From a phage, in the sequence record PZ452578.1: 64,000 nt of DNA; one strand, 5' to 3'. The notes under the pieces are model-generated. The model was not told where the DNA came from and ran no database searches. It saw only the letters and a program-made list of their open reading frames with translations. Positions 2,983 through 63,842 of the stretch are shown in pieces. The position numbers and the translations under genes are program-made. Positions within the stretch are counted from its first letter, which is position 1. Every line of letters starts with the position of its first letter.

Positions 2983-3141
2983 TTAATCATTAGTAGATAA
3001 CAACACAAATGTTAAATATGCACACATACCCTGGGCTAAAGCTTGTGAAAACACACTGCTAGCATCGATACAGATAGTTAAAACACATGCTACTATCCAA
3101 CAAATAAATGAAATAACTCCTAATAATTTTGCGATATTCAT
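2983..3141 (-). CDS. small membrane protein (52 aa; internal ATG with GGAG RBS)
   Basis: ORF track 62 aa ORF; GGAG 8 nt upstream of internal ATG at 3141; hydrophobic. Confidence 0.5.
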   Translation of the reverse strand: MNIAKLLGVISFICWIVACVLTICIDASSVFSQALAQGMCAYLTFVLLSTND

Positions 3142-14780: not shown

Positions 14781-15461
14781 TCGTTTTGTTGGAAGAGATA
14801 GAGGATCGCATTCTTCCTCTGATGGAGCGTCTTCTAGACCCATAGCATAGCGCAAAGCATACTTCATCATCAGGATGTCTTTTGCACAGTCATGAATGGA
14901 ATCATGCGCAACAAATCCATCTAAAGTTCCCTTTGGAAGTGGGCAAGTGGTCATATCACGAACAAGGAGAAGTGCTTCAATTCTAGTACGAATATCACGC
15001 TGATTCCAGAATTTACATGGTTCTAACTTAAACGTATCAAGCTCATTCTCAGAAACACCATTAAGGCGTTGAATATCACGAATGAGATCGACTAAAATTG
15101 GAAAATCAAACGACATTCCACGGCACCAGCCTTGAGATTTCCAAGGATCGATATTATGTGCATTGATGTAATCATTAAATTTTGCAATACCGTCAATAGT
15201 GCTTACATCTTCATCTGATGGTGCAATATTTTTTCTAGCTTCAGGTGATTGATTTTTCCACCATTCAATAGTGCTTTTAGTAAAAAGACGATGTCCTTTT
15301 TGGCTTTTTAAATCAAATTTGATTTTAATGCCACGTGAAACTAATTCATCAAATGTTTCAACAACTTCTGGGTTAGGGTCAAAGGCAATAACAGCCAAAT
15401 CAATAACCGCTGCTTTTTCACCGCTTCCCATTGTTTCAAAATCTATAATAAAATCAAACAT
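14778..15461 (-). CDS. dexA: DexA exonuclease A
   Basis: ORF track 227 aa matches T4 DexA length; position upstream of dda. Confidence 0.85.
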   Translation of the reverse strand: MFDFIIDFETMGSGEKAAVIDLAVIAFDPNPEVVETFDELVSRGIKIKFDLKSQKGHRLFTKSTIEWWKNQSPEARKNIAPSDEDVSTIDGIAKFNDYINAHNIDPWKSQGWCRGMSFDFPILVDLIRDIQRLNGVSENELDTFKLEPCKFWNQRDIRTRIEALLLVRDMTTCPLPKGTLDGFVAHDSIHDCAKDILMMKYALRYAMGLEDAPSEEECDPLSLPTKR

Positions 15462-54299: not shown

Positions 54300-55301
54300 T
54301 TACTTAATTAACTGTAAAGCTTGTTCTAGACGATCAAGACGATTAACAGATTCTTCCCAAATCCTTTTAGCCTGCTCATATTCTTTGTGCGCTTTATTAG
54401 AAATTTCTAGAACTTCTTTATAAGCTTTTTCTAGTGCAATAACTTCTGGACGAATTTCTATCGGTTCAGGTGAATCGTCAAGACATTCCATTAGTTCCTC
54501 AAGGGTAGTTTCTTCTTTAGGAGTATTCACAATTTCATCACATTTTTGTTGATAAATTTCTTTATCAGTAGGTGAGTACGCGCACTTTACTTCACGAAGA
54601 CTAATTACAATTTTATATCCTTCCCAGCCGCATATATTCTTAAAAGGATATGTATGAATATTTTCTACTGTTTCCATACAAAGTAATGCGGTCTCTAATT
54701 GACGAGTTATAGTGCTAGCAATTGAGAAAAATTTATTAATATTCTTTTGGTTAGTTTCTGGTGTAAAAAATCTGTAATTAATAAAAATAGCTACTTTGTT
54801 TTTATCAAGCTCATATTCTTCTGCTATAATCATATCATCAGCTAAGGGATGAATTTGACGATAATCGCCATAACATAATTTAGAAGCTGATTTTAGAATT
54901 TGCTTCGTAAAACTCCTAAATTCACTAACCCAACGACGAGTAAAAATATTCTCAGGGTCTTCTTTAGTATTAAGATGATAAGTATTAACATCACCGAACC
55001 AATTGTATCCTACTACATCTTTGGTTCGTTTAATTTCTTTCCCAAATTTACCAAGAATATCTTGATTAACTAAATATGAAAGAAGACGAGACCCTTTAAA
55101 GGTTTCCTTAATATCATCTTTATCTGCACGACTAGAAATTTTATGAACTTCATGAATAAATTTGCTGGAAGAAACAATACTTGCATCAGTATTATTGAGC
55201 CATTGATTGATAATGGAAATAACGCTATTCTGACTAGACATAGGTTTAACTTTATCATCAATAACGCTATTGAATGATTTGATATATTCGTTACGAGTCA
55301 T
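54300..55301 (-). CDS. paralog family member 2 (333 aa)
   Basis: ATG at 55301 with GAGGAG RBS; track start lies inside the upstream promoter. Confidence 0.65.
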   Translation of the reverse strand: MTRNEYIKSFNSVIDDKVKPMSSQNSVISIINQWLNNTDASIVSSSKFIHEVHKISSRADKDDIKETFKGSRLLSYLVNQDILGKFGKEIKRTKDVVGYNWFGDVNTYHLNTKEDPENIFTRRWVSEFRSFTKQILKSASKLCYGDYRQIHPLADDMIIAEEYELDKNKVAIFINYRFFTPETNQKNINKFFSIASTITRQLETALLCMETVENIHTYPFKNICGWEGYKIVISLREVKCAYSPTDKEIYQQKCDEIVNTPKEETTLEELMECLDDSPEPIEIRPEVIALEKAYKEVLEISNKAHKEYEQAKRIWEESVNRLDRLEQALQLIK

Positions 55302-55329
55302 ATTAATCTCCTCAGTAGAAAGTAAGAAC

Positions 55330-55365
55330 ATTATACCACATCCTTGTGGCGAAGTAAACTAGTTT
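55330..55365 (-). promoter_or_regulatory. T4-type early promoter (GTTTAC / TGgTATAAT), near-identical to the one at 9356..9390
   Basis: Plus attataccacatccttgtggcgaagtaaact. Confidence 0.65.
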
Positions 55366-56378
55366 AGTGCATTTAGTGCATTGTTCAGTTTAGAACGTTG
55401 CTTCGTGAGATTTTTGACTTTTTCTTGAGCTTTTTCTAGCATCTTTTCAGCTTCTAGCACTTCATTAGTTGCTTTGACGAGTTCATCATCTACTGCCTTG
55501 ATAGACTTCTCAATCGCATCCGCGTGCCATTTTTCAACAGGTTTAAGACTCGGATTTTCAACAGGAAGAAAATTCACTTTATTGAATTTCCATGCATCTT
55601 TATTACCTGAACTATACATCCAAAATTTAGGATCGTTTGATGAGTAATTAGATAAATTTAAGTTATCTTGCACTTCTTGCTTTTTCTCTTGCGGGACTTC
55701 GTCCTTTCTCAAAAAATCGTATTTAAATGAAACGATCATATCAAGTTCATATGTTGTTGTATGTTCCCAATTTCGCTCAAAACGAGGTAAAATCTTAGAA
55801 TGAACTGCAGCAACAACATCCATATACTTAAATGCTTCTGTCAACTGCGATTTAAGGCATTCGCAAATTGAAAGAGAATTTTTTGTATTAGGTTTAAAGC
55901 TAATTCGTGCAGTTCTATTATTTTCTTTTAATGGTCTTACTTCCATCTGAAGAGTATAACCATCAAATTTCAAGTTCTTTAAGTTAATGTCAGAACCTTT
56001 TAATCGACTAGCCGTCGACAAAATTTGCTTTAATTGTTTACGGAATAGAGCAATAAATCTCCATTCAATACGATAATGATTTGGATTGAAAAATCCAGAT
56101 GATAAATCGACCTTACTCTGACCAACACCTTGAACAAATAGAGGATTTTTATAATCAATAGTTTTACAGAAATCGGTGAGCTGCTCACGAGCAGTCATTT
56201 GTGTAATATACCCCGCTTTACTAAAATGACGTAATAATTCACTGCTATTTAGATATTTAAAGTGAATAGCACGATTAACTTTATCAGGGTCTAAATTATT
56301 TTCACACAAAAATGTCATAACATTACGAGTATCGCTGCCAGTACGAACCATATCTTCAATTTGAGAACGAGTTTTCAT
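55359..56378 (-). CDS. paralog family member 3 (339 aa)
   Basis: ORF track. Confidence 0.65.
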   Translation of the reverse strand: MKTRSQIEDMVRTGSDTRNVMTFLCENNLDPDKVNRAIHFKYLNSSELLRHFSKAGYITQMTAREQLTDFCKTIDYKNPLFVQGVGQSKVDLSSGFFNPNHYRIEWRFIALFRKQLKQILSTASRLKGSDINLKNLKFDGYTLQMEVRPLKENNRTARISFKPNTKNSLSICECLKSQLTEAFKYMDVVAAVHSKILPRFERNWEHTTTYELDMIVSFKYDFLRKDEVPQEKKQEVQDNLNLSNYSSNDPKFWMYSSGNKDAWKFNKVNFLPVENPSLKPVEKWHADAIEKSIKAVDDELVKATNEVLEAEKMLEKAQEKVKNLTKQRSKLNNALNALN

Positions 56379-56386
56379 GGTGTTCC

Positions 56387-57301
56387 TTAAGATTTAAGTA
56401 AATCAACAATTTTAATTAACTTTTCACGCTCAGATTTAGCTTTACTACTCAGTCCAGATAGTCTGAAAATTTCATCATCATATTGTTGAATAGAAATATT
56501 CAGCTCTTCAATCTGTTTATTAAAATAATCAATTTGTTCAGAATGTTTTTCGTTACTACGAAATGGTACAGGTTTTGTAGGCAATTTAGTTGAATTGGAT
56601 TCATCCGGGCGATAAATTAAAATACAACTTGAACCAATCGGACATTTAGCACCAGATGAATATTCTAACGTTCCAGCTTCTTTTAAAACTTCAAAAGCTA
56701 AACAGAGATGATGCCCCATATTGACATAATCTGTAGAGTGAGCTCTGACATAATAATCATCTCCACGAGTACTAAATTTAAAGCATTTAAGGTCTTCTGT
56801 ATTATTAGTTTTAAAAATCATTTGTTTATCTAGACCTTTAGCTAATCGAGCGCCTAATGCTAATAATCGTCGTTGATTTTCCCACAAATCCGCAATCATT
56901 TGGTCAAATGATAATTTTGGCATTAGTCGACCATAAAGGTCATATCCTTTATTATAATTACGAAGGATTTCACTCGCGTTAATACGAGACAACGCTCCAA
57001 TTTTATTAAGGGCTTTCATAATACGATTAGATAAACTCATTCCAGACCCGTTTGTTCGCCGTAAATGTTTTTCTAATCCAAATCCAATATCAACTTTAAA
57101 TTTATCTAAAATTTCAGCATGAACATCTCTGTCAATAACATTCAAATCCAAAGTTGGGTTAAATCTATGAAAAAATTTATCTGGCTCTCCACGACGAAGT
57201 ACAGTCCATTCATTCATCATTTTTTTATTAACTAAAGATTTAATTACTGCATTGACATTATTAATTGCTACTGACATATTTTCCTCACTCAATTTTACCA
57301 A
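56387..57301 (-). CDS. paralog family member 4 (304 aa)
   Basis: ORF track. Confidence 0.65.
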   Translation of the reverse strand: MVKLSEENMSVAINNVNAVIKSLVNKKMMNEWTVLRRGEPDKFFHRFNPTLDLNVIDRDVHAEILDKFKVDIGFGLEKHLRRTNGSGMSLSNRIMKALNKIGALSRINASEILRNYNKGYDLYGRLMPKLSFDQMIADLWENQRRLLALGARLAKGLDKQMIFKTNNTEDLKCFKFSTRGDDYYVRAHSTDYVNMGHHLCLAFEVLKEAGTLEYSSGAKCPIGSSCILIYRPDESNSTKLPTKPVPFRSNEKHSEQIDYFNKQIEELNISIQQYDDEIFRLSGLSSKAKSEREKLIKIVDLLKS

Positions 57302-58714: not shown

Positions 58715-59434
58715 TTACGATTCTTCTAAATGTCTTTTCTGAAAAGTTGATACCATACTACGATAAGGTTCATTTGGATACCCGTGTTTTATAGCTTCCT
58801 TTGTAAATTTTCTCCATCCGTATTTAGTTTCTTTCCAAAGCTCGAATAATTCATCTTCATACTGCCATATAGTTAAATGAGAACGCTTTGCAGCTTTAAT
58901 TCCATTAATGTGCTTTTCTTTTACTGTAGGATTGCTTAGTGTCTTTTTAATAATATTACTAACTTTTCTAACAAAAGCTGGGTCCTTATATCGTTGTGAA
59001 GTTTTTATTGAAGTGTTTAATTTAGCTTCCGGCGTGGATGTGACCTCTTTCATCTTTTTCTTCATATGCTCTATATGATTAGGATTTTTCCATAAATTTA
59101 TAGAATGCTTTTTACATTTTATCCTAGTTTCATCTGCAACCTTTCCTCCTTCACCCCCATATGACAGGTTAACGCAGTTTTTTCCATATTTCAATTTACC
59201 TGCCATGATATATAATATTTCGGCTTGTACCATTTTATCATAATTATCAAAAACTTCTAAAACCGTTTTTGATAATATATGGTCATTTGACACTTTTACA
59301 CGTTCTATATAATTTCCACTACCAACATACGAATCATTGATGTTATTAGTTATATGTCGACCATAATAGTATTTCTTAATACCTGTCTTTAAATTTAATA
59401 TTTCAGTTTTATAGATAGTAAAATATTTTTTCAT
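58715..59434 (-). CDS. putative GIY-YIG-family homing endonuclease (239 aa)
   Basis: ORF track; N-terminal TIYK...KYYYG pattern and Lys-rich C-terminal repeats; weaker match than the 42349 gene. Confidence 0.5.
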   Translation of the reverse strand: MKKYFTIYKTEILNLKTGIKKYYYGRHITNNINDSYVGSGNYIERVKVSNDHILSKTVLEVFDNYDKMVQAEILYIMAGKLKYGKNCVNLSYGGEGGKVADETRIKCKKHSINLWKNPNHIEHMKKKMKEVTSTPEAKLNTSIKTSQRYKDPAFVRKVSNIIKKTLSNPTVKEKHINGIKAAKRSHLTIWQYEDELFELWKETKYGWRKFTKEAIKHGYPNEPYRSMVSTFQKRHLEES

Positions 59435-60399
59435 TTTAATAATACCGTTTCAGCGATTTCTTCCCAACCGTTTTTGTCGGTCATAATAAAGTCAGCAAGA
59501 TAAAGAGCAGTACGCAGTGAAACATTACGTAAACGATTAACATTGACTTTCATCCATGATAATGCTTTATAAGTTTCTTCATCAGAAAGACCGCGTTTTT
59601 GCATCATGTCAGTTGAAAGAATAACATCTTCAACCCTGACCATAATTTCTTCATTAGTGTGAACACCCAAATCTAAATAAACTGAGCGGGACACTAATGC
59701 TTGTAAATGTGGAGCAAGTTTAGTACCACGGTCTAATTCACGGTCAATGTCAACGTTTGTGATAAAAACAATTGTTCCTTTAAATTCAAACTCACGGTCA
59801 ATGCCTTTTTCTTCTAAGTAAGAAGATGCAGTGCTCCAGCAGACTTTACGGGTCTCTCCAGTGTCCAGAGCAGCTTTCAGAAGATTAAGAATGTCCATAT
59901 CAGAGAAAACATCCACATCATCAATCAAAAGGACAGAATTCTCTTCACGATTATTCCAAAGCTGTTCATAAAGACCGATACCAGAGATTTTACCATTAAT
60001 GCTTTTATACTCAATGTATCCAATATCATTTGCTTTATTTAAAGCTTTATCTAAAGAATACGTTTTACCAATGCCTGCCGCACCAGAGATAATTAATGAA
60101 CGAATGTTTCCGTTAATAATACCATTCGTCATCATTCCCATAACATTAAATCTTTTATTAATGCGGGTTTTCATATCTTCATATGATTCTTTAACTTCTT
60201 CAACTTTTACACCATCATATGAAATGTCTGATTTGTAAACCCAAACACCGCGACGCTTACCGTCAATTTCAACAAAAACTTTACCATCTCCTTGTGCATC
60301 TACCGGAGCATTATCAGGGAACCACTCACCTAAGAGTTCAAAAGTTCCAGAGATTTCTTTACCGAAGTAGATACCCTTATTGATAGTTACAGTTTTCAT
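59431..60399 (-). CDS. P-loop NTPase (AAA+-like), 323 aa
   Basis: ATG at 60399 with GGAG RBS; Walker A GAAGIGKT, Walker B VLLIDDVD. Confidence 0.7.
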   Translation of the reverse strand: MKTVTINKGIYFGKEISGTFELLGEWFPDNAPVDAQGDGKVFVEIDGKRRGVWVYKSDISYDGVKVEEVKESYEDMKTRINKRFNVMGMMTNGIINGNIRSLIISGAAGIGKTYSLDKALNKANDIGYIEYKSINGKISGIGLYEQLWNNREENSVLLIDDVDVFSDMDILNLLKAALDTGETRKVCWSTASSYLEEKGIDREFEFKGTIVFITNVDIDRELDRGTKLAPHLQALVSRSVYLDLGVHTNEEIMVRVEDVILSTDMMQKRGLSDEETYKALSWMKVNVNRLRNVSLRTALYLADFIMTDKNGWEEIAETVLLK

Positions 60400-60436
60400 T
60401 TTATTCTCCAAATCTGTATCAGTAGTTGATAGTTGT

Positions 60437-60480
60437 ATAGTACCATAAAGCTTTATGCTTGTAAACAGTTTTGTGAAAAA
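60437..60480 (-). promoter_or_regulatory. T4-type early promoter with conserved leader
   Basis: Plus atagta 60437-60442, gtaaac 60461-60466. Confidence 0.7.
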
Positions 60481-60484
60481 ATTT

Positions 60485-60514
60485 TGAAATAAAAAGGGAG
60501 CCCGAAGGCTCCCT
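60485..60514 (-). terminator. Intrinsic terminator (GGGAGCC-UUCG-GGCUCCC + U-run)
   Basis: Inverted repeat 60496-60513 with A-run 60491-60495 on plus. Confidence 0.7.
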
Positions 60515-60515
60515 A

Positions 60516-61529
60516 TCATTTATAATAACTTCGGTGGTTTTCAAGATAGACCTTCTCAAGGAAGTCATCCCAGAAACTCATGTCTACTTTTTGCTGCATA
60601 CCGTTCTTAGAAGCTTCAGTAGATGCTGCTTCTACTTGATCGACCACATCTTCCAAAAACTCTTGAACCGTTTTAAATGGATGTTTACCCAACTTCACGT
60701 CGAGAATAAATGGAGCATCTTGGAGTGGATAAACCAAGTCACCAGTTTTGTAAATTTCCAACAGTTGGAGTCCACCACGGCAAGCATGACTCAGAGCTTT
60801 CCAGTCAATACCTTCATTGGCTTCGGCCTTACGAGCACGTTCACCATATTCAGCATCTAATTTGTTCAGTGACTGCTTAAGCTCAATAAGAGAAAGCGTT
60901 GTCTGATATTTACGACCCAACACTGTATAAAACGTTTGTGGGCCGGTTTTCTCATGATTATGGAACACCCATTCACAGAATTCATTCTTTGGAAGACGAT
61001 GCTTAATATCTTCAACTTTAGTACGACGCTGCTTAATAGAACCATCTTCTTGGTAATCAACCCATTGCTCAGGGATTTGATTAACTACTTTCAATACATC
61101 ACGTAATGCAGCCAAACGAGAACCTTTGACACCGTATTTAGAAGCTTGCTTGCGGACATATCCTAAATATGATTTCATATTAGTCGTATAAAAACGAGAA
61201 CGGTTGTCTTGAATAAACTTCCACACATCAGGTAAATCAGATTTAACCACTAGTTCAGGTGGAGTATGAAGCATATCTAATGCTACAGTTTCACCATCTG
61301 CTGCTAATTTAAAGAAATATTTAAGACTGTATAGTTCATGGTCAATATCATCTTTAGTGTTTTTAGATGATGTGTTGTTAGTGTTTTTACTCATGTGCTC
61401 TTTAACATTTCCAATAAGAATATCACGAGCAGGAGGAACAAAGATTTCTTTAAAATCTACATCAGATTCTGGAGTAGAAGTTCCATAAAGATGACTACCA
61501 AAATAGCTTTTCATTACTGTTTTCATCAT
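60516..61529 (-). CDS. Pol-beta-superfamily nucleotidyltransferase (337 aa)
   Basis: ORF track; N-terminal motif YFGSHLYGTSTPESDVDF (GS-x9-DxD). Confidence 0.7.
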   Translation of the reverse strand: MMKTVMKSYFGSHLYGTSTPESDVDFKEIFVPPARDILIGNVKEHMSKNTNNTSSKNTKDDIDHELYSLKYFFKLAADGETVALDMLHTPPELVVKSDLPDVWKFIQDNRSRFYTTNMKSYLGYVRKQASKYGVKGSRLAALRDVLKVVNQIPEQWVDYQEDGSIKQRRTKVEDIKHRLPKNEFCEWVFHNHEKTGPQTFYTVLGRKYQTTLSLIELKQSLNKLDAEYGERARKAEANEGIDWKALSHACRGGLQLLEIYKTGDLVYPLQDAPFILDVKLGKHPFKTVQEFLEDVVDQVEAASTEASKNGMQQKVDMSFWDDFLEKVYLENHRSYYK

Positions 61530-61987
61530 TCAGCCTTATATTCAATAACAGGACATACTTTAGCTTTACGAGCTTTTAAAAATTCAACGATAACCGATTT
61601 CTTGGGTTGAATAGGAGGTAAACCTTTATACGCCCTATCAATATTTTCTACGTGTAAAGCATAATCCTTTTTCCATTTATAATCTTTATATTTTTCACGC
61701 AAATGTGCAGGAATAACAAATGAACCGATAATAAGTAAAACAACCAAAAGCGCAAGTATAAATGCTGATGGAAGCAAAGTCCATAAACTACCAAAAATAA
61801 TCCAACGCTGTAGGCTTTCTGCACAAATAATTGTTAGCCCTACGAGTATAGCACATCCAAAAATAGAAACGAAAAATGTAGGAATGGCAATAGACCAAAA
61901 ATATGCGCATAGTGTCTTAGGTCGTTGCCATTCATCGTTAAACAATTTGAATAATTTATAGTGCCAAGAGTTTTCATTAATAATCAT
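61526..61987 (-). CDS. membrane protein (153 aa)
   Basis: ORF track; two or three hydrophobic helices. Confidence 0.6.
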   Translation of the reverse strand: MIINENSWHYKLFKLFNDEWQRPKTLCAYFWSIAIPTFFVSIFGCAILVGLTIICAESLQRWIIFGSLWTLLPSAFILALLVVLLIIGSFVIPAHLREKYKDYKWKKDYALHVENIDRAYKGLPPIQPKKSVIVEFLKARKAKVCPVIEYKAE

Positions 61988-61989
61988 AA

Positions 61990-62511
61990 TTATCCTTTCA
62001 TTGAAAGCGTAACGGTTGTTAAATACTTAATCATAGCTTCAGCTTCTGATTTTGACAATGAAATTTCTCCATTGTTTTGACGAATAGAAATAAAATCCGG
62101 ATGACGGTCACCGCCAGCTTTTAAAACACACATATAAGTATCAACTTCGCCTTCAATATTTGAAATGATTGAAGCAGTTCCACATGAATGCGGTTTTTGA
62201 TAAATCAATACAGCTTTTCTTCCGCCATTTGACTGCTCATAGGCTTTTAATACATCAAACAAATCACTTCTTTTATCAATAGCTAAAATGTTATTTTCAT
62301 CTTCAATGTTAAATCCTTCGGATACTTCATAAAGTGTCACCCATAAATCGCCAATATCAATAACAGCGTTCACTTTTCCATGACTTTCAAGAGCATGACA
62401 AATTTTCTTGATTTCGTCATAACTCATTTTAATAATATCATCTCCTTGAATAAGAAAGATGTCATTTTTAAATTCAACACGAATTAAACCACTTCCACTT
62501 GAAATAAACAT
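61990..62511 (-). CDS. hypothetical protein (173 aa)
   Basis: ORF track; C-terminus similar to next ORF. Confidence 0.6.
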   Translation of the reverse strand: MFISSGSGLIRVEFKNDIFLIQGDDIIKMSYDEIKKICHALESHGKVNAVIDIGDLWVTLYEVSEGFNIEDENNILAIDKRSDLFDVLKAYEQSNGGRKAVLIYQKPHSCGTASIISNIEGEVDTYMCVLKAGGDRHPDFISIRQNNGEISLSKSEAEAMIKYLTTVTLSMKG

Positions 62512-62517
62512 ATTTCC

Positions 62518-63075
62518 TCACTTTGAAATCATAGTTGGAATGACAGAATCAAGATAAGTCTTTAGTGCAATAGCTTCGTCTTTGGTAAATGTGACAATAT
62601 GTGATCGAAAATCGTCGATTTGGCGAATAGTTAAGACATCTCCCTCTTCATAACATTTTGATACATTTAAAAGAGTTTCATCATTCTGATTGCAAGCGTT
62701 AGTAATAATAGCATTGCAATTTTTGAGCCATTTTAAACTATGTTTTCTTTCATTAGAATAATAAAAATATTTAATCTTAGCTATAAAACTATCCCAATGG
62801 ATAACTGATAAACACATTGACTCACTTTTAATATTAAATCCTGGGCATGAAGAATAAAAATGAATTTTGTGCTCATCATTGATGCTTACTATTTTATCAG
62901 TATAAGGATATTCAATTTGGGTTAAATGAATGATTTCACTAGGCGTAAAATATAGCATATCGTCTTCTTGCGTCAAACGATACATGTTATTTACTTTTTC
63001 TATAGCCAATTCACCAAAAAGCGGACTAACTTCTAATACTAATCGTTTCATATTGATTCTCTTCGACTCACTCAC
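62518..63075 (-). CDS. hypothetical protein (185 aa), paralog of the 61990 ORF
   Basis: ORF track; shared C-terminal motif [ST]K.EA.A.[IL]K.YL..V. Confidence 0.6.
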   Translation of the reverse strand: MSESKRINMKRLVLEVSPLFGELAIEKVNNMYRLTQEDDMLYFTPSEIIHLTQIEYPYTDKIVSINDEHKIHFYSSCPGFNIKSESMCLSVIHWDSFIAKIKYFYYSNERKHSLKWLKNCNAIITNACNQNDETLLNVSKCYEEGDVLTIRQIDDFRSHIVTFTKDEAIALKTYLDSVIPTMISK

Positions 63076-63210
63076 AATTACATACTCCTTTGAATAATAT
63101 CAATAATGTTGTTCACCAGATTATAAGTAAACATTGGGTAATTATATTGAATCATTACATACACAACAAACAAAACTTTCATTCTCTTCTCCTTGACAGT
63201 TGACAAGATT

Positions 63211-63245
63211 ACTATACCATAACCTTGCCAACTTGTAAACCGTTA
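63211..63245 (-). promoter_or_regulatory. T4-type early promoter (GTTTAC / TGgTATAGT)
   Basis: Plus actata 63211-63216, gtaaac 63235-63240. Confidence 0.6.
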
Positions 63246-63416
63246 AATGTTGTTTTCAATAAAATTTTGAAGCTTTGTGTGAGCATCAACCATGATTTTC
63301 ATTTCTTCTTTGGCGAAAGCTGTACCTCTTTCCCGAGCAGAATACTCATAGTCAGAAACTGCATTAGCATATTCTTCAATTAGCTTCATTAAAAACATCT
63401 GCTTTTCAGTTTTCAT
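63243..63416 (-). CDS. hypothetical protein (57 aa)
   Basis: Own translation MKTEKQMFLMKLIEEYANAVSDYEYSARERG...; AGGTGG RBS. Confidence 0.4.
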   Translation of the reverse strand: MKTEKQMFLMKLIEEYANAVSDYEYSARERGTAFAKEEMKIMVDAHTKLQNFIENNI

Positions 63417-63600
63417 TATTCCACCTAATCATTTCAAGATATTGAACTAACTTAGCTTTAGATTTATCCAAATCCCTTTTAGCTGATTCTATACCATCGT
63501 ATGAATATCCTTCACAATGCTCAACTGCTAATTGGTATGAATCTATTTCAATATCATGCGCTAATTTAATGATTTTTTCAAACTGTTCGCGTGTTAGCAT
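63406..63600 (-). CDS. hypothetical protein (64 aa)
   Basis: ORF track. Confidence 0.5.
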   Translation of the reverse strand: MLTREQFEKIIKLAHDIEIDSYQLAVEHCEGYSYDGIESAKRDLDKSKAKLVQYLEMIRWNNEN

Positions 63601-63602
63601 AA

Positions 63603-63842
63603 TTAAACTCTCGTATTATGATCGATAATTTCATCAAGAAACATATCTAACGCTTCTAAAGCATTATCAACTTTAGCTTCAAGTTCATCAATGCCTTTAT
63701 TTGCAATGCCTGACGAAAACCAAGCAAAGTCACTAAGTTCCTCGTCTGCTTTACGAATTAAAGCTACCAATTCCTTAATTTTATCCGCTTGTTCGATACT
63801 AATCATTATTCCACCACATATGAAAGAGAGAATATTGCACAC
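63603..63842 (-). CDS. hypothetical protein (79 aa)
   Basis: ORF track. Confidence 0.55.

Follow-up and report, generated by a model that had tools for sequence, protein, structure and literature searches.

We analyzed a 64,000-nucleotide stretch of phage DNA (sequence record PZ452578.1; hereafter the window) and found that two adjacent minus-strand genes, which we call A (173 amino acids, aa) and B (185 aa), are, on the evidence of their sequences, true full-length paralogs of the MobD.1 family of T4-like phages. In the reading that we favor, to which as a whole we assign a probability of about 0.5, this pair consists of proteins made of PUR-like repeats that would dimerize through the third repeat, bind a protein ligand, and serve a dispensable accessory role. 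The window is that of a Tequatrovirus, and the 2-kb stretch at the pair shares 98.5% identity with Shigella phage SHFML-26 and 98.2% with Escherichia phage AR1, with matches in 509 T4-like phage records. The two genes and their parts are as follows.

61990–62511, minus strand: gene A, the diverged paralog, 173 aa from an ATG start (open reading frame, ORF; Pfam and PHROG matches; AlphaFold2 model).
62224–62511, minus strand: N-terminal domain of A, two repeats, each with four strands and a helix in the AlphaFold2 model.
61993–62223, minus strand: C-terminal domain of A, repeat 3, which carries LSKSEAEAMIKYLTTVTL (Pfam T4_y05I_C; five strands and a helix in the model).
62512–62517, minus strand: spacer of 6 base pairs (bp), GGAAAT, which together with the TGA stop of B makes up the ribosome-binding site of A (TGAGGAAATATG).
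62518–63075, minus strand: gene B, the ortholog of T4 mobD.1, an ORF of 185 aa from GTG (177 aa from an alternative ATG at 63051).
62752–63075, minus strand: N-terminal domain of B, repeats 1 and 2 (Pfam N-domain), which in some Tequatroviruses lies mostly within a swapped, highly divergent cassette.
62521–62751, minus strand: C-terminal domain of B, repeat 3, predicted to be PUR-repeat-like, with five strands and one helix (AlphaFold2, Foldseek).
62536–62589, minus strand: motif of B, FTKDEAIALKTYLDSVIP, predicted to form the end of the last strand and the C-terminal amphipathic helix of repeat 3.

A sequence-only reading of the same DNA had proposed a tandem paralog pair of 173 and 185 aa, 6 bp apart, whose C-terminal segments are related. 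Both minus-strand ORFs lie precisely where that reading placed them, and both of the motifs that it quoted were found in the translations, LSKSEAEAMIKYLTTVTL at 62005–62058 in A and FTKDEAIALKTYLDSVIP at 62536–62589 in B. The similarity is significant and spans the full length of the proteins, not the C terminus alone: residues 3–171 of A align with residues 16–182 of B at 26% identity (BLASTP expectation value E = 8e-7 over ∼170 residues). Profile alignment and structure prediction, the checks that had been proposed, gave shared profiles for the two proteins and placed the motif in the helix of repeat 3 in the models. Both proteins match the same Pfam pair, T4_y05I_N (PF24449; A 1.3e-34 and 119.2 bits, B 6.1e-39 and 133.1 bits, covering residues 12–108 of B) and T4_y05I_C (PF24448; A 2.8e-21 and 76.1 bits, B 6.7e-21 and 74.9 bits), in each case above the gathering scores of 24.9 bits for PF24449 and 27 bits for PF24448, and both match PHROG 1502 end to end (A 3e-65, residues 1–173; B 3.3e-80, residues 12–184). 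No other segment of the family is as well conserved as the repeat-3 motif. In the window, A ends in TTVTLSMKG (62005–62022), whereas AR1 and the other examined A-type sequences read TTVTPSMKG and one T2-type variant has Asp. In the family's VIPTM tail the aligned residue is almost always Pro; the Leu of A is an uncommon change within the best-conserved motif.

Gene A corresponds to the ar1_101-type gene of AR1 and is present in RB32 and absent from T4, and B shares 86% amino-acid identity with T4 MobD.1. Some genomes annotate B as a 177-aa protein from the internal ATG at 63051. The 185-aa reading is preferred because the GTG of B aligns with the ATG of T4, the internal Met is missing in T4, and relative to T4 the window has an in-frame insertion of 15 nucleotides (nt) at this point. 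A and B are in the same frame, and the Shine-Dalgarno sequence of A (GAGG) overlaps the TGA stop of B.

The structural part of our reading starts from the C-terminal domain of B, which was modeled alone by AlphaFold2 from a deeper alignment that includes free-standing homologs, giving a predicted local distance difference test score (pLDDT) of 86.8 and a helix at domain residues 57–75. In a Foldseek search of the PDB, this model matched repeat III of Drosophila Pur-alpha (5fgo_E; template modeling [TM] scores of 0.64/0.75, root-mean-square deviation [RMSD] of 1.8 Å over 62 columns) and repeat III of human PURA (8chw_B; TM 0.63/0.70), with further matches to Borrelia Pur-alpha (3n8b, 3nm7), Pur-alpha repeats I–II (3k44), and MS2-type coat proteins. 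Thirteen of the 20 best PDB matches are Pur-alpha repeat III, Borrelia Pur-alpha, or Pur-alpha repeats I–II, and the remaining high-ranking matches are mostly coat proteins of single-stranded RNA phages; the PUR entries have Foldseek probabilities of 0.97–1.0 and RMSDs of 1.8–2.1 Å. The PC4-like fold class includes PUR proteins, MS2-type coat proteins, and MRP1 (PMC7549692). On these models, a PUR/PC4-like fold of repeat 3 is likely. Within that class, type I domains are intramolecular and contain two repeats, type II domains are dimers of single repeats, and the element equivalent to the motif described above forms the dimer in PUR repeat III and in Borrelia Pur-alpha (PMC7549692).

The full-length AlphaFold2 model of A (mean pLDDT 77) contains three units, each with four or five strands followed by a helix. 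Its N-terminal domain scores ∼81–93 per ten-residue block and its C-terminal domain, modeled within the monomer chain from a shallow alignment, 57–79. The elements of the N-terminal domain fall into two successive series, with strands at residues 2–5, 8–14, 18–22, and 25–29 before a helix at 31–43, and strands at 49–53, 56–60, 67–70, and 75–78 before a helix at 81–94. This order and a pLDDT of ∼90 fit an intramolecular PUR domain, with weak structural matches, and the topology assigned by DSSP fits the PC4-like class, with weak statistics. Repeats 1 and 3 are related at the profile level (hhalign probability 88%, P = 3.3e-6) and share a Q-[ED]-D ... T-x-x-E pattern. Furthermore, the profile of DUF7189, a group of 60–70-aa phage proteins encoded just upstream in some genera, matches both repeat 1 of A, weakly (3.3e-4), and nearly the whole C-domain protein of Klebsiella phage Roth19 (5.7e-4). 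The homology between repeats and the DUF7189 matches point to an origin of the three-repeat proteins from single-repeat genes. The sole match in a PDB sequence-profile search with the family alignment, CsoS1D at E = 0.36, was treated as chance.

The pair lies in the early-gene region between tk and nrdC, where every gene is on the minus strand. In the direction of transcription the order is a promoter-like site, mobD.2, B, A, a 153-aa membrane protein gene, nrdC.11, nrdC.10, and a GIY-YIG homing-endonuclease-like gene. The members of this string that flank the pair are as follows.

61526–61987, minus strand: membrane protein of 153 aa that has two hydrophobic segments and, at its C terminus, a basic tail of 59 aa (PHROG 944 'membrane protein', 1.2e-49; hydropathy and charge).
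63078–63182, minus strand: mobD.2, a mini-ORF of 34 aa (translation; the same 105-bp gene is annotated in T4).
63211–63239, minus strand: T4 early-type promoter-like site, GTTTACA, 17 nt, and extended TG-TATAGT (consensus match upstream of the gene string).

B and A are separated by 6 bp and A and the membrane gene by 2 bp, the membrane protein starting 2 nt after the stop of A, and the membrane gene overlaps the start of nrdC.11 by 4 bp (ATGA). The stop of mobD.2 likewise falls 2 nt before the GTG of B, whose ribosome-binding site AAGGAG lies within mobD.2, and mobD.2 itself is ∼97% identical in nucleotide sequence to its counterparts in T4, AR1, and EC121. The string is tightly packed and probably translationally coupled. 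The site at 63211–63239 is the top-scoring consensus match on the coding strand (10/12 with the TG), in a region whose total of such sites is not above the shuffled expectation, and its role would be that of a putative early promoter for the string.

It had also been suggested that the pair is a duplicated accessory family next to a module of an ATPase and a nucleotidyltransferase (NTase). Pfam and PHROG identify nrdC.11 as a nucleotidyltransferase of the RlaP family and nrdC.10 as an AAA-type ATPase, and both do lie downstream; however, the membrane gene at 61526–61987 intervenes before the NTase, and the comparative data tie the pair to that membrane gene rather than to the NTase and ATPase. 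In every examined arrangement that carries the membrane gene, a y05I_C-domain gene lies within 9 nt upstream of it. There are six other arrangements with this adjacency beyond the window, and the cases comprise Tequatrovirus A genes (the window, AR1, EC121), hybrid loci (L008–L010), Gaprivervirus VR26, Winklervirus X20, Klebsiella phage Roth19, and metagenomic T4-like contigs (L003–L005). The 74-aa genes of X20 and Roth19 match T4_y05I_C at 7e-23 and 2e-24, respectively. Judged from sequence comparison, the C-terminal repeat is the conserved core of the family, which in other T4-like genera is encoded as a free-standing gene of ∼75 aa. The membrane protein family is broader, with 921 records. 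In other T4-like genera, small DUF7189 and/or Phage_tudor genes precede the free-standing C-domain gene, with a DksA/TraR-type zinc-finger gene further upstream; this recurring mini-cluster is exemplified by contig positions 3053–3532 of L005, 1991–2218 of L011, and 2093–2284 of L012.

The charge of these proteins bears on the nature of their ligand. A has a net charge of −8 and an isoelectric point (pI) of 5.0, B a net charge of −4 and a pI of 5.9; distant full-length members reach −19 to −22, and most free-standing C-domains have a pI of 4.3–5.3. Conserved positions are mostly hydrophobic or Q, E, D, or T, including the acidic QEDD and GFNIExE motifs, and in composition and conservation the family displays no conserved basic or aromatic patch. 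The tail of the membrane protein has a pI of 9.6, complementary in charge to A. A protein ligand is favored for three reasons: the acidity of the family, its lack of PUR nucleic-acid-binding sequence features, and its tight coupling to a membrane protein whose cytoplasmic tail is basic.

In the mechanism that we propose, by analogy with PUR proteins, the third repeat would pair with a second copy (A-A, B-B, or possibly A-B), completing a two-repeat domain, and repeats 1 and 2 would together make an intramolecular domain, the source of a variable binding specificity. As the ligand, a protein (the membrane tail or a host factor) is more likely than single-stranded DNA or RNA, and the obvious candidate partner would be the basic tail of the co-encoded membrane protein. 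A and B would thus be dimeric accessory scaffolds, dispensable and probably serving host takeover or host adaptation.

Several observations weigh against this proposal. The PUR matches have weak Foldseek E-values (0.05–0.5), and the topology, a strand meander and then a helix, is a simple one. A Foldseek search of the PDB with the full-length A model returned nothing at E ≤ 0.001; the N-terminal domain gave only weak matches (2it9, E = 0.043; the PC4-like MRP1 2gje, E = 0.46), and the top matches were otherwise scattered among lipocalin-like proteins, LolA, and a sliding clamp with TM ≤ 0.3, which is uninformative. Neither 3k44 nor 5fgp was among the best 50 Foldseek matches of that model. Repeat 2 gave no signal against repeats 1 and 3 (hhalign probability <1%). 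On the genetic side, the promoter call is a consensus match only, and the adjacency to the membrane gene could be inherited gene order in a conserved region and not a functional link. In T4, B persists without the membrane protein, so that B, at least, must be capable of functioning on its own.

Single-stranded nucleic-acid binding is what the fold class suggests, which is probably where the Pfam name 'putative transcription factor' comes from, and the first alternative takes this name literally: A and B would be classical Pur-alpha/Whirly-type regulators that bind single-stranded DNA or RNA and whose dimers would act early in infection, binding nucleic acid of the phage or the host and unwinding or sequestering it. 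Nucleic-acid binders make up the overwhelming majority of the fold class (PMC7549692), the proteins have three repeats of which the third resembles the dimerization repeat of Pur-alpha, and the gene string has an early-type promoter-like site upstream and an RNA-repair-type nucleotidyltransferase adjoining it. Against these points stand the acidity of the family, with its mostly hydrophobic or acidic conserved residues, and the profile searches, in which A, B, and three relatives had no PurA, Whirly, PC4, or DUF3276 match at a cut-off as loose as E ≤ 10. For an acidic family with no PUR sequence match, DNA or RNA binding of the classical kind is doubtful, and we regard this alternative as possible but with the odds clearly against it.

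A second alternative, which we consider unlikely, is that the likeness to PUR reflects convergence or a modeling artifact, and that A and B are small, unrelated, strand-rich proteins that act as monomers in an accessory role, such as inhibiting a host defense or enzyme or serving as its decoy. The insignificant Foldseek E-values and the lack of a sequence link to PUR are what this explanation would predict, and the N-terminal four-fifths of B occurs in two ∼48%-identical alleles, a pattern common in host-interaction genes. However, the top PDB matches fall consistently into one fold class at the probabilities (0.97–1.00) and RMSDs given above, and the three repeats have the same order of secondary-structure elements, with repeats 1 and 3 homologous at the profile level. 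A defense-related role also finds no support in PADLOC or NCBIfam, neither of which returned a match for A, B, the membrane protein, nrdC.11, or nrdC.10, although PADLOC is a library of defense systems and not of counter-defense proteins.

Turning to how the pair is maintained, 461 phage records contain gene A, and in all but one of these (460) it is intact. The identity is ≥90% in 433 of the records, 80–90% in one, and 56% in a T2-type variant. B-type proteins are found in 729 records, among them a group at ∼42–49% identity from other Tequatroviruses and further Escherichia/Shigella phages, and a group at ∼30–34% identity from Gaprivervirus and related phages. Pairwise ratios of nonsynonymous to synonymous substitution rates (dN/dS) are 0.13–0.16 for A, 0.09–0.22 for B (close alleles), and 0.09–0.13 for the membrane gene, which indicates that A and B are real genes under purifying selection. 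It is very improbable that one copy is a redundant duplicate drifting to loss: T4 lacks A and is fully viable, and hybrids collapse the pair to a single gene, but dN/dS is 0.1–0.2 for both copies, A is intact in nearly every record, and the two proteins, at only 26% identity, have coexisted or diverged for a very long time. Both genes are dispensable in the laboratory, as T4 naturally lacks A and a deletion from nrdC.11 to mobD.3 is viable (PMC9825161).

An exhaustive profile search of 1.84 billion representative proteins yielded only 27 clusters and no evidence of cellular homologs, every cluster with an examined genomic context being in a T4-like phage. The clusters include full-length proteins of 180–196 aa and many free-standing C-domain proteins of 67–87 aa, the latter sharing the motif [FL]TKxEAxALVxYLNxVIPTM.

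A T4 remnant allows part of the history of the pair to be reconstructed. Positions 61531–62492 of the window, which span A and the membrane gene, are replaced in T4 by the HNH homing-endonuclease gene mobD. Following the mobD.1 stop, T4 keeps TGAGGAAAT and then ATGTTTATTTCAAGTGGAA, which correspond to the ribosome-binding site and the first six codons of A; this remnant lies at ∼15259–15283 of the T4 locus, between mobD.1 and mobD, and matches positions 62493–62517 of the window. Because T4 keeps this remnant of the A start, the two-gene state must have come first, and T4 lost A and the membrane gene at the insertion of mobD. The remnant opens an unannotated frame of ∼22 codons that overlaps the annotated mobD start. 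Other lineages have a single family member: Gaprivervirus VR26 has one 184-aa protein followed by the membrane gene, mobD, and nrdC.11, and in the hybrid loci L008–L010 a natural fusion of a B N-terminal domain with an A C-terminal domain forms a single gene followed by the membrane gene.

The duplication itself is not recent. The claim of a duplicated family stands insofar as the paralogs are real; A and B are, however, only 21.5% identical in the N-terminal domain and 28.6% in the C-terminal domain (∼21% and 29%), and homologs from other genera, at 25–39%, are no more distant. A recent duplication in situ was rejected, since A and B are no closer to each other than to those homologs. Nor are they sisters in a neighbor-joining tree of the C-terminal domain, a weak tree built on a short domain. 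Taken together, the sequences indicate that the pair is either ancient or was assembled by acquisition.

Gene B is in addition a site of recombination, and exists as two alleles ∼48% identical in genomes that are otherwise ∼97% identical. Compared with EC121, nucleotide identity falls to 30–60% over ∼63080–62640 and is 97–100% on either side, with sharp boundaries. The first four-fifths of mobD.1 are thus a mosaic cassette, with the 3' crossover inside the sequence coding for the C-terminal domain. The invariance of the B C terminus across alleles was set aside as a sign of strong selection, since nucleotide identity there is 98–100%, which marks a recombination boundary.

The surrounding region contains further features. 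Upstream of the pair, at 63243–63842 on the minus strand, three consecutive ORFs of 57, 64, and 79 aa match DUF7438 (5.8e-16, 5e-18, and 4.4e-15) and form a tandem paralog array; they correspond to ar1_103, mobD.3, and mobD.4 of AR1, and related phages carry four copies. Between nrdC.9 and nrdC.10, a minus-strand gene at 58715–59434 encodes a 239-aa homing-endonuclease-like protein (PHROG 314, 4.4e-30) with a GIY-YIG-like N terminus. It is absent from T4 at this site, positions 58718–59451 of the window having no T4 counterpart, and AR1 annotates a shorter, equivalently placed 'segE'. The mechanical ORF of nrdC.10 (59431–60519, minus strand) has 362 aa and overlaps nrdC.11. The match to PHROG 1250 starts only at residue 41, and the annotated proteins of AR1 and T4 have ∼322–325 aa; translation probably begins in fact at the internal Met of MKTVTINKG. 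Three consecutive minus-strand ORFs of 343, 339, and 304 aa at 54300–57301 occupy the positions of nrdC.4, nrdC.5, and nrdC.6 of AR1. By eye they display similar central segments and C termini that are rich in helix and possibly coiled-coil, and they may be a further tandem paralog set.

Part of this is already known: the family is curated (PF24449/PF24448, PHROG 1502), and more than 430 deposited genomes carry the pair, a common Tequatrovirus feature, so that the tandem pair alone will not surprise a T4 specialist. What is new is the assignment of a likely PUR/PC4-like fold with a Pur-alpha-like three-repeat layout, the recognition of the C-terminal repeat as a mobile, conserved core, the conserved pairing of that core with a membrane protein gene, and the reconstruction of the loss of A in T4 through mobD insertion. 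In the literature that we searched, we found no publication on the fold, the C-terminal core, the membrane-gene pairing, or the loss in T4, and no functional or structural study of the MobD.1 family. The tk–nrdC region of T4-type genomes is rich in conserved early genes without a known role, MobD.1 among them, and the present analysis offers three leads for it: a fold hypothesis, a defined core in the C-terminal repeat, and a conserved genetic partner in the small membrane protein. T4, as a natural knockout of A plus the membrane gene, could be used as a control.

A more speculative proposal, which we put forward tentatively and would not expect to hold in full, is that the MobD.1 family is a second, independently assembled Pur-alpha layout. 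An intramolecular PC4-like domain and a dimerizing single repeat would have been joined in T-even phages by fusion of free-standing single-repeat genes (DUF7189-like and y05I_C-like) that are still separate in T4-like phages of Klebsiella, Serratia, and Yersinia. The product would have given up nucleic-acid binding for a new use, as an acidic module that binds proteins or mimics nucleic acid and operates together with the conserved small membrane protein, possibly in the form of A/B heterodimers. If true, the family would show multi-repeat nucleic-acid-binding folds arising by gene fusion and changing function.

The closest known system is T4 MobD.1 (NP_049711), for which the searched literature reports no function. 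B is its ortholog and has the same position downstream of mobD.2, and A shares both its two-domain architecture and its profile matches; T4, in contrast, has one copy and no membrane gene downstream, with mobD there instead. The PC4-like protein of phage T5 (4bg7) is likewise a phage-encoded member of the PC4-like fold class, but it shares 25% sequence identity with PC4 and has a role in recombination-dependent replication (PMC7549692); it was not among our Foldseek matches. Borrelia burgdorferi Pur-alpha, or BpuR (3n8b, 3nm7), a single-repeat homodimer of ∼75–85 aa, is the best analogue of the free-standing y05I_C proteins of Serratia, Klebsiella, and Yersinia T4-like phages. BpuR is reported to bind both DNA and RNA and to regulate transcription as well as translation (PMC3764826, PMC6736767), whereas the phage proteins are acidic and are encoded beside a membrane protein gene. 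Metazoan Pur-alpha (PURA; 3k44, 5fgo, 8chw) differs from the phage proteins in that the latter are acidic, lack sequence-profile similarity to it, and have five strands in the third repeat, and the PC4-like fold of the phage N-terminal domain is backed only by the order of secondary-structure elements and weak matches. The two nevertheless have in common three strands-then-helix repeats, and the last phage repeat is nearest to the dimerizing repeat III. Pur-alpha is the only reported protein that combines PC4-like domains of types I and II (PMC7549692), and the models indicate that the phage family appears to share this layout.

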